DNA from: a virus
Taxonomy: Duplodnaviria > Heunggongvirae > Uroviricota > Caudoviricetes
IMG/VR virus record: IMGVR_UViG_2698536485_000013
Length of the DNA stretch: 5,416 bases
Direction: 5' to 3' (one strand)
Part shown: piece by piece, positions 3,486 to 5,416 of the stretch
Layout: each line of letters starts with the position of its first letter
Position numbering within the stretch: position 1 is the first letter of the stretch
The notes under the pieces: model-generated
Told to the model about the DNA's origin: nothing
Seen by the model: the letters and a program-made list of their open reading frames with translations, nothing else
Databases searched by the model: none
Position numbers and translations under genes: made by a program

Positions 3486-3686
3486 TCATTTTTTACCACC
3501 TTCTTTGCTTAAGAAATGGTGTAGAGCCTGATCAATACTCTCGTTTAGTCTGAACATACGGGCTTTTACTCCTTCATATGGAACATCTAAGAGAGAACAT
3601 AGATATTTCAGATTTAACAAGCCTCTAGAATCATTAGCATCTAAATGTACGTGTACACCATTTTTTGATTTCAGAATCACTTCCAT
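3486..3686 (-). CDS. Small hypothetical protein, 66 aa, tightly linked upstream of the 609-aa gene
   Basis: ATG at 3686-3684 with GAGAGGTGA about 7 nt upstream on the minus strand; stop 18 nt before the 609-aa gene start. Confidence is lowered by the short length and lack of recognisable motifs. Confidence 0.55.
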   Translation of the reverse strand: MEVILKSKNGVHVHLDANDSRGLLNLKYLCSLLDVPYEGVKARMFRLNESIDQALHHFLSKEGGKK

Positions 3687-3710
3687 ATTTTAATCACCTC
3701 TCAAAATTTA

Positions 3711-3755
3711 AAAATAAATAAAAAAAGGCGAAGCGTGTTATTCACGCCACGCCTC
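3711..3755 (-). terminator. Putative intrinsic (rho-independent) terminator or attenuator on the minus strand, between the 342-aa gene and the 66-aa gene
   Basis: Seen in sequence, read on the minus strand: GC-rich interrupted hairpin (3726-3730 AGGCG with 3751-3755 CGCCT; 3733-3737 GCGTG with 3743-3747 CACGC; loop TTATT), immediately followed by a T-rich run (reverse complement of 3711-3725 = TTTTTTATTTATTTT). It begins 18 nt after the 342-aa gene stop. Confidence 0.55.
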
Positions 3756-3772
3756 TATTACACGTTAAAATA

Positions 3773-4816: not shown

Positions 4817-4998
4817 TTAAGAAGTGAAAACAGAATGGAACCCTTCAAGCTGAAAGCCTTTTTTAATTAATGCTGTTTTTGCTGCTTCACTTACAGCATT
4901 CAGGGCATCAGCTTTGATGCATACAAGCCCAGCATTGCTACGTAGCACATCTACAGGCTTGTTTTCCCCAGCCGTTACAAATTCACTCAGAACAACAT
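4817..4998 (-). pseudogene. 3' remnant (~59 codons) of the operon's 5'-proximal gene, interrupted by the IS3 insertion
   Basis: The minus-strand frame is open from the IS3 junction (4999) down to TAA at 4819-4817 and continues into IS3 sequence. The only start in the ORF track (5014) lies inside the IS3 terminal repeat, so it is fortuitous. Tight 15-nt spacing and an RBS for the next gene support a real, formerly longer gene. Confidence 0.5.
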
Positions 4999-5037
4999 TG
5001 ATCTTACCCAGCAATAGTGGACACGCGGCTAAGTGAG
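4999..5037 (+). repeat. IS3 left terminal inverted repeat (IRL), approximate extent
   Basis: Established knowledge: the IS3 terminal inverted repeats are about 39 bp and begin with 5'-TG. The exact inner boundary is not verifiable here because the right end is outside the window. Confidence 0.6.
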
Positions 5038-5063
5038 TAAACTCTCAGTCAGAGGTGACTCAC

Positions 5064-5363
5064 ATGACAAAAACAGTATCAACCAGTAAAAAACCCCGTA
5101 AACAGCATTCGCCTGAATTTCGCAGTGAAGCCCTGAAGCTTGCTGAACGCATCGGTGTTACTGCCGCAGCCCGTGAACTCAGCCTGTATGAATCACAGCG
5201 CTACAACTGGCGCAGTAAACAGCAAAATCAGCAGACGTCTTCTGAACGTGAACTGGAGATGTCTACCGAGATTGCACGTCTCAAACGCCAGCTGGCAGAA
5301 CGGGATGAAGAGCTGGCTATCCTCCAAAAGGCCGCGACATACTTCGCGAAGCGCCTGAAATGA
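5064..5363 (+). CDS. insE: IS3 transposase OrfA (helix-turn-helix DNA-binding and leucine-zipper component)
   Basis: The protein MTKTVSTSKKPRKQHSPEFRSEALKLAERIGVTAAARELSLYESQ...LKRQLAERDEELAILQKAATYFAKRLK matches IS3 OrfA as I recall it. ATG at 5064 has GAGGTGA 5 nt upstream. The ORF track's start at 5055 is an in-frame GTG and is probably not the real start. Stop TGA at 5361-5363. Confidence 0.9.
   Translation: MTKTVSTSKKPRKQHSPEFRSEALKLAERIGVTAAARELSLYESQRYNWRSKQQNQQTSSERELEMSTEIARLKRQLAERDEELAILQKAATYFAKRLK
5326..5363 (+). promoter_or_regulatory. Probable programmed -1 ribosomal frameshift region of IS3 (A-AAG slippery motif near the orfA 3' end, upstream of the orfA/orfB overlap)
   Basis: Seen in sequence: CAA AAG at 5325-5330 in the orfA frame, followed by GC-rich sequence and the ATGA overlap. 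Established knowledge: IS3-family elements make the OrfAB transposase by -1 frameshifting. The exact slip site is assigned from memory and is not verified. Confidence 0.4.
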
Positions 5364-5416
5364 AGTATGTCTTTATTGAAAAACATCAAGCTGAGTTCAG
5401 CATCAAAGCAATGTGC
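5360..5416 (+). CDS. insF: IS3 transposase OrfB (DDE catalytic component), first 19 codons only; 3'-partial at the window edge
   Basis: ATG at 5360-5362 overlaps the orfA stop (ATGA) in the -1 frame and encodes MKYVFIEKHQAEFSIKAMC, the recognisable N-terminus of IS3 OrfB. Confidence 0.85.
   Translation, partial: MKYVFIEKHQAEFSIKAMC

Follow-up and report, generated by a model that had tools for sequence, protein, structure and literature searches.

What allows an abundant subunit and the minor components that accompany it to be made in different amounts from one operon? Internal terminators or intercistronic hairpins set subunit ratios in phiX174, where they stand after genes J, F, G and H, in the pap pilus operons, through the papA hairpin, and in rpsU-dnaG-rpoD. 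Gene 10 of bacteriophage T7 encodes the major capsid protein and the tail genes follow it. The T7 terminator Tphi gives 78% termination in single-round assays with T7 RNA polymerase (PMC2952870). In phi92, a Justusliebigvirus, the gene order runs from the decoration protein to the capsid protein gp124, a gap of 72 nucleotides (nt) and the next ribosome-binding site, and the gap holds a terminator-like hairpin, AAAAAGCCUGCCC-CUUGC-GGGUGGGCUUUUUU. Here we consider an element found in IMG/VR record IMGVR_UViG_2698536485_000013, a stretch of 5,416 nt that was analyzed whole and is called the window below. The element is a hairpin with a U-tract in the 86-nt spacer (3772-3687, minus strand) between a capsid gene of 342 amino acids (aa) and a 66-aa gene. 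Its anatomy, its rarity, the identities of the genes on either side, its conserved location and the purifying selection on its stem and on the downstream genes could all be observed directly. It is likely that the hairpin and U-tract constitute an intrinsic terminator that acts as an intra-operon attenuator and as the former of a 3' end, where we infer both partial termination and a stoichiometric purpose.

Read on the minus strand from 3772 to 3687, the spacer RNA is UAUUUUAACGUGUAAU-AGAGGCG-U-GGCGUG-AAUAA-CACGCU-U-CGCCUUU-UUUUAUUUAUUUUUAAAUUUU-GAGAGGUGAU-UAAAAU, after which comes the AUG at 3686-3684 (Table 1). The stem starts 16 nt past the TAA stop of the capsid gene, and the ATG of the 66-aa gene comes 34 nt after the T-run. 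The initial annotation, which was made from the sequence alone, had described a GC-rich hairpin and T-run on the minus strand between the 342-aa and 66-aa genes, with the ribosome-binding site of the latter soon after the T-tract, and both parts of this description hold, the ribosome-binding site being GAGAGGUGAU. Nor is the folding energy weak, since the predicted energy is -19.6 kcal/mol for the hairpin by itself (z -5.45) and -24.8 kcal/mol for the whole spacer (z -4.25), with 0 of 200 shuffles of the spacer folding equally well. The anatomical features of an intrinsic (Rho-independent) terminator are all present: a stable GC-rich stem, a short loop (3-8 nt), a U-tract 3' of the stem and a position past a stop codon. 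The U-tract of such terminators is about 7-9 nt long and lies immediately 3' of the stem; here U7 comes directly after CGCC, and the T-tail score over the first 15 nt after the hairpin is 5.7. RNA 3' ends are predicted at about 3718-3722, which agrees with the interval 3711-3725 where transcript coverage had initially been expected to step down. On the plus strand the complementary hairpin is followed by CTCTATTAC and is without a T-run, and the element is therefore unidirectional.

A generic terminator scan includes the site, and overall that scan is at chance level (5 sites against 4.1 expected). Because it was not enriched over shuffles, a stricter scan was devised that requires a closed hairpin of -12 kcal/mol or lower with six or more T immediately after it, and both strands of the window were searched. 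A single site is returned, the post-capsid hairpin, compared with 0.063 sites per window in 300 dinucleotide-preserving shuffles, 6% of which have any site. It is therefore very unlikely that such a structure would come to lie by chance in the 86-nt gap on the coding strand. The 34-nt stretch that separates the T-run from the start codon of the 66-aa gene leaves no space for a promoter, and no sigma-70-like one was called there. The best candidate found by eye for an internal promoter of the downstream genes, TTCGCC-16-TAAATT, agrees at only 7 of 12 positions, its start would fall inside the Shine-Dalgarno sequence, and it was judged unlikely. With no promoter-like match in the 34 nt to the AUG, expression of the downstream genes must come from read-through, and because the ratios of nonsynonymous to synonymous substitution (dN/dS, 0.07-0.12) indicate that all three of these genes are functional, read-through must occur.

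The window belongs to an integrative island of about 12 kb located at tRNA-linked sites (glyU, thrW), and its minus-strand gene row consists of a 65-aa open reading frame (ORF) and the 342-, 66-, 609- and 237-aa genes. The 342-aa protein matches Pfam Phage_cap_E (5.7e-14) and phrog_29, a major head protein. Its AlphaFold model, built with 21 homologues (predicted TM score, pTM, 0.73), retrieves solved HK97-fold capsids with Foldseek, the top match being PhiTE (E 1.4e-17, TM 0.66), and also matches the capsid proteins of Bas63, Sf14, ICP1 and lambda (gpE). It is an HK97-fold major capsid protein and thus the most abundant virion protein. Further along the operon, the 609-aa protein shares 34-37% identity with tape-measure proteins of phi92-like phages, and the 237-aa protein 58-61% with phi92 gp135 and its homologues, which are annotated as tail tube initiators; at least two of the three genes after the hairpin encode low-copy tail proteins. 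The 66-aa protein that stands between has no match in Pfam, PHROG, NCBIfam or PADLOC. Its single-sequence AlphaFold model (predicted local distance difference test score, pLDDT, 77) is a beta-hairpin plus two helices with no significant fold match, and a PDB profile search gave weak, non-significant resemblances to sigma region 4 (E 0.09-0.5). Homologues of this protein (M-x-[LVI]-[IV]-L-K-S...) stand after the terminator in all clades. All four operon genes, the capsid gene and the three downstream, are under purifying selection, with dN/dS of 0.10 for the capsid, 0.07 for the 66-aa, 0.12 for the tape-measure-like and 0.07 for the Dit-like gene.

How would the element work? Host polymerase arriving from upstream would transcribe the capsid gene and pause on the U-tract as the 13-bp (base pair) hairpin forms, and a large fraction of the complexes would release their RNA at the predicted 3' ends. 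The resulting short capsid transcripts would end in a 3' hairpin that would be protective against 3' exonucleases. The read-through minority would carry the strong Shine-Dalgarno sequence and AUG of the 66-aa gene, followed by the tape-measure-like and tube-initiator-like genes, and the outcome would be high capsid and low tail-protein output from one promoter. The initial annotation had proposed an attenuator that fixes stoichiometry, in the pattern of an abundant structural subunit followed by minor components. An HK97-fold capsid gene followed by tape-measure-like and Dit-like genes is that pattern, and the attenuator itself, in which termination would be partial, is supported in silico by the anatomy, the gene identities, the lack of an intervening promoter and the retention of the arrangement across related loci described below. 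The toxin/immunity or defense operon that it had named as an alternative finds no backing, as PADLOC detects no defense family among the 10 island proteins searched.

Homologues of the capsid protein are confined to Enterobacterales. Altogether 110 related loci were gathered from genomes, IMG/VR and metagenomes, and the sequence after the capsid stop was extracted in 107 of them. In 106 of the 107, the interval from the capsid stop to the 66-aa homologue contains a hairpin (-17.7 to -32.9 kcal/mol) and a T-rich tail, usually immediately ahead of the ribosome-binding site of that homologue. These loci come from Escherichia, Citrobacter, Klebsiella, Enterobacter, Kluyvera, Buttiauxella and other genera, and their capsid identity is 55-100%. 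The spacers form several unrelated sequence classes that are not alignable between clades, and nhmmer searches of the window with profile hidden Markov models of the relatives' spacers gave no match at 3687-3772. What is conserved across clades is the structure and location of the hairpin, not its sequence. By eye, GUGAAUAACACGC of the window looks like the UGGAAAUAA(A/U)CAGG linker of relatives, a possible homology.

Within clade A, the clade of the window (33 sequences, capsid identity 88-100%), 0 of the 28 columns of the stem arms are variable, against 201 of the last 600 nt of the capsid gene (33%), and the hairpin stem is under purifying selection. Three of the five loop columns vary, with two alleles, AAUAA and UAUU, and the Shine-Dalgarno sequence is invariant. 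The T-run (the site at 3703-3726) ranges in length from T6 to an uninterrupted T19 among otherwise near-identical clade A islands, and this variation could alter termination efficiency. Two metagenomic copies (L031 1554-1640; L043 2830-2914) have a deletion or rearrangement that starts right past the T-run and removes the ribosome-binding site and start of the 66-aa gene.

Table 1. Coordinates of the post-capsid element and of the other features of the window.
Feature	Position	Strand	Remarks
Terminator hairpin, AGAGGCG-U-GGCGUG [AAUAA] CACGCU-U-CGCCUUU	3756-3724	minus	13 bp, interrupted, GC-rich
Hairpin 5' arm	3756-3750 + 3748-3743	minus	
Hairpin loop, 5 nt	3742-3738	minus	
Hairpin 3' arm	3737-3732 + 3730-3724	minus	
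Hairpin 1x1 U/U mismatch	3749/3731	minus	
U-rich tail: U7 (3726-3720, uninterrupted), A, U3, A, U5, AAA, U4	3726-3703	minus	
Shine-Dalgarno sequence GAGAGGUGAU of 66-aa gene	3702-3693	minus	near-consensus; 6 nt before AUG 3686-3684
Major capsid protein gene, 342 aa	3773-4801	minus	upstream of hairpin
66-aa gene, conserved	3486-3686	minus	first after terminator; dN/dS 0.07
Tape-measure-like gene, 609 aa	1638-3467	minus	phrog_16051 tail length tape measure, 8.8e-54
Dit-like / tail-tube-initiator-like gene, 237 aa	890-1603	minus	last of operon; Pfam Dit_like 3.4e-29
Hairpin between convergent integrase and 237-aa genes	816-848	either	likely bidirectional operon-end terminator
Tyrosine integrase, C-terminal part	56-808	plus	pseudogene here; Pfam Phage_integrase 1.1e-17
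65-aa ORF	4817-5014	minus	
Truncated 120-aa gene, 3' half	4817-4998	minus	gene precedes capsid gene in intact islands
IS3 left end (orfA 5055-5363), inserted in 120-aa gene	4999-5416	plus	Pfam HTH_Tnp_1; exact boundary of insertion sequence inferred

Intact copies of the island show what lies ahead of the capsid operon. Directly past the upstream gene stands a near-consensus sigma-70 promoter, TTGACA-17-TAATAT, preceded by TG. An ORF-free, hairpin-rich leader of 280-1000 nt comes next, and its end, just short of the first capsid-operon gene, is marked by a hairpin and T-run of its own. This layout of promoter, leader and terminator is found in at least six diverged members, among them L112 12910-13230 (minus strand), L005 6727-7330, L006 6740-7340, L104 4940-5330 and L057 4530-5350, and the leader region has no match in Rfam. 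The layout resembles pR'-tR' of lambda and may serve antitermination control or a long leader RNA, and antitermination may modulate the effect of the post-capsid terminator. No Q- or N-like antiterminator was detected in the island by Pfam, PHROGs, NCBIfam or PDB sequence search; a helper-encoded factor is possible.

Relatives of the window carry additional RNA structure after the capsid gene. Spacers of the clades with 55-77% capsid identity measure 85-120 nt, and those of clades B and C also contain an H-type pseudoknot. Its hairpin S1 begins 7-9 nt past the capsid stop (e.g. L072 7030-7090, L026 9030-9080, L057 7027-7082), and the S1 loop is complementary to sequence past a conserved A-rich linker, GGAAAUAA, with which it forms helix S2. 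Examples of the S2 pairing are AGCUCUUC/GAAGAGCU, AGUUCUUC/GAAGAACU, AGCCUGA/UCAGGCU and CCUGU/ACAGG. The cases of 7-8 bp have P of about 0.002 each by shuffling, a compensatory change from C-G to U-A occurs with a U-G intermediate, and both helices covary. The pseudoknot was tested with helix-anchored scripts and shuffling controls, as the helices do not stay in register in a whole-spacer MAFFT alignment, loops and linkers being of unequal length. Recoding at the capsid stop, prompted by the pseudoknot, was considered and rejected: the alternative-frame extensions run from 1 to 100 codons (mostly 2-47) and are inconsistent even between near-identical members, and there is no conserved slippery heptamer. 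In clade C (e.g. L072 7060-7075, 7146-7156) the linker CUGGAAAUAA is exactly complementary to UUAUUUCCAG just past the terminator T-run, and judging by this complementarity the two could form a long-range helix that encloses the terminator; the complement is reduced to G-U pairs in one subtype and is absent in clade B.

The terminator hairpin of clades B-D bears an apical stem of 4-5 bp with a conserved nnGCAA(A/U) loop (L026 9100-9120, L006 9095-9115, L104 7075-7095, L057 7100-7120). In a loop-anchored gapless alignment of this stem, to which the formal covariation tool was applied, both partners have changed in all five pairs. The stem scores 0.78 for covariation, a value that none of 500 shuffles attains (0.19 for shuffles), and the score falls steeply when the register is shifted. 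A search for a partner of the GCGCAAA loop of relatives found no complementary site on the sense strand of the loci. Some clade C members (L094, L095, L096) have lost the apical stem and retain the terminator, and the 86-nt spacer of the window, like the rest of its clade, has neither pseudoknot nor GCAAA loop, so these extras are not essential for the core function. Pseudoknot and terminator types are combined mosaically among relatives, which suggests recombination between modules. Masking of the Shine-Dalgarno sequence by the U-tail was a further candidate that we rejected: the full-spacer fold includes a second hairpin, but its pairings alone amount to -3 to -6 kcal/mol, no better than shuffles in five of five clade representatives. 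At gathering thresholds Rfam has no match in the window or in six related loci, and none in the spacer of one relative, the best sub-threshold match being caiA RNA at 27 bits against a threshold of 55.5, which is regarded as noise.

The island copy in the window is degraded. The DNA of the window comes from the E. coli chromosome and matches strains such as 13E0725 at 100% identity, and the left end of an IS3-family insertion sequence (IS) interrupts the 120-aa gene. The 65-aa ORF corresponds to residues 60-120 of the NC101 version of the 120-aa protein (97% identity), and the remaining half of the gene lies beyond the IS, which RefSeq annotates as 'IS3-like element IS3 family transposase'; orfA matches NCBIfam transpos_IS3 below the cut-off (33 bits against 160). 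The insertion cuts the capsid operon off from its native promoter and leader in this copy. According to RefSeq, the integrase is missing its N-terminus and adjoins a second IS3-family element, and at locus L113 the coordinates tied to the IS3-family disruptions of this copy are 6941-8154 and 13245-14407. At the other end of the operon, the 81-nt spacer between the integrase and 237-aa genes (809-889) folds at -21.5 kcal/mol on the minus and -22.8 kcal/mol on the plus strand (z -3.6 and -4.1). Past its hairpin the sequence reads UUUAUUG on the minus strand and UUUUAUAAUU on the plus strand, T-rich both ways, and the hairpin is probably a bidirectional terminator that closes the operon.

How well does an attenuating terminator account for all this? 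Termination at the hairpin, and its efficiency, are predictions, and several observations weigh against the idea. The element looks strong, with a perfect U7 and a GC-rich stem base, so unaided read-through could be small. The leader layout of intact relatives is typical of antitermination control, and a polymerase under processive modification would run past the post-capsid terminator, so that any effect on stoichiometry would be lost. The pseudoknot and GCAAA loop are unneeded for plain termination and hint at further functions in the family, and in the IS3-disrupted copy of the window, where the integrase is also disrupted, the hairpin may see little transcription now. Under lambda Q-type control, internal terminators are read through. 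By analogy, the hairpin could be a conditional full stop under processive antitermination, a safety barrier against leaky tail-protein expression and not a setter of stoichiometry. Without an antiterminator encoded by the island or a helper phage, polymerases would stop at the leader terminator and escapees after the capsid gene; with it, both terminators would be ignored. The apparent strength of the post-capsid terminator fits such a barrier, as do the near-consensus promoter, ORF-free leader and leader terminator of the diverged intact islands. However, no Q- or N-like protein was found, and the small proteins of the island match nothing in Pfam, PHROGs, NCBIfam or PDB sequences. The leader, moreover, lies outside the window and was studied superficially. 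A barrier could sit anywhere, yet in phi92 and in all clades the terminator is found right behind the capsid gene, a placement that a stoichiometric role fits better, and we consider the conditional full stop unlikely.

A role at the level of the RNA would shift attention from termination to the 3' untranslated region of the capsid mRNA, which could be a stabilizer, the source of a small RNA or the binding site of a phage or island protein, with the terminator hairpin as scaffold. In its favor, spacers of 85-120 nt in clades B-D hold extra structure, a pseudoknot and a covarying apical stem, that termination alone does not need. The clade of the window, however, has neither feature, some clade C members drop the apical stem and keep the terminator, the invariant core is the hairpin plus U-tract, and neither an Rfam match nor a complementary loop partner in the loci was found; such a role appears quite improbable as the main one. 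That the hairpin is a chance or relic structure without present function in a decayed copy might be argued from the unenriched generic scan and from the two IS3-family elements that disrupt this copy. Against it stand the small number of sites expected in the strict scan, stems that are invariant in 33 relatives while a third of the adjacent coding columns vary, and an architecture retained in all but one of the loci. Furthermore, the IS insertions are lineage-specific and intact island copies have the same hairpin, which makes a relic very hard to believe. An intra-operon attenuating terminator is the reading that we favor.

The island is more unusual than the hairpin. In strain NC101 it occupies L112 7086-19350, between yqeG and tRNA-Gly (glyU), and strain E423 provides another intact example. 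It contains an integrase, a six-gene operon (70 aa, 120 aa, capsid, 66 aa, tape-measure-like and tube-initiator-like), small genes that match no described family, a resolvase, and a replication-initiator-like helix-turn-helix protein or helicase, and it has no portal, terminase or protease gene. A stretch of 1.9-2.6 kb without annotated genes, holding short ORFs only, adjoins the resolvase-type recombinase gene (L112 15690-17520; L001 22209-24820). The island is present in 332-428 of 5426 complete E. coli genomes (about 6%) and in other Enterobacterales, with a median of one per carrying genome and up to three places. A DNA search of a phage collection gave no match to the island beyond a 79-bp piece, and a literature search, including by protein accession, returned nothing on it. 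It joins a private capsid gene to tail genes akin to those found in virulent phages of the phi92 type, and it has the look of a satellite-like element, undescribed so far, that is related to them. The hairpin itself is a textbook device, probably one more well-supported post-capsid terminator that keeps capsid output above tail-protein output, and it is useful for annotating and predicting island transcripts. Alternatively, it could be viewed as the stripped-down form of a modular post-capsid regulatory RNA of the island family, in which the leader and post-capsid terminators would act as the two checkpoints of a switch that a factor from a helper phage or from the island reads. This we regard as a doubtful extension, although if true the switch would set the timing and ratio of capsid and tail-hijacking proteins. 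Knowing where island transcripts end is a first step to how the island switches on and whether it parasitizes or blocks phi92-like phages.

The post-capsid element and its surroundings are reminiscent of several known systems. The intact islands resemble the late operon of lambda (pR', 6S leader, tR' and Q) in what precedes the structural genes: a promoter that looks strong and constitutive, then a leader that does not code for protein and a terminator of that leader. Unlike lambda, the island has no detected Q-like gene or qut-like site, its leader of 280-1000 nt compares with 194 nt in lambda, and that leader lies beyond the window. The elements of phiX174, papA and rpsU-dnaG-rpoD belong to other gene families and organisms, and the likeness is by analogy only: an abundant subunit comes first, then a terminator or stabilizing hairpin, and the minor components would be reached by read-through. 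Tphi of T7 acts on T7 RNA polymerase, whereas the island element would act on host RNA polymerase with an efficiency that is predicted only, and the two share no sequence similarity. However, both are an intrinsic hairpin and U-tract terminator directly past the capsid gene and before co-directional tail genes, and in T7 termination is incomplete, so that capsid mRNA is in excess. In phi92 the hairpin sequence is unrelated to that of the island, and head-completion and neck genes come next, with tail genes later, whereas the island passes straight to the tape-measure and tube-initiator genes. Nevertheless, the capsid proteins of phi92 and of the island are homologous over their full length, if distantly (22% identity, E 4e-10). 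The tape-measure-like and tube-initiator-like proteins of the island have their closest relatives in phi92-like phages, and in both genomes capsid stop, hairpin and the ribosome-binding site of the next gene follow one another in the same position.

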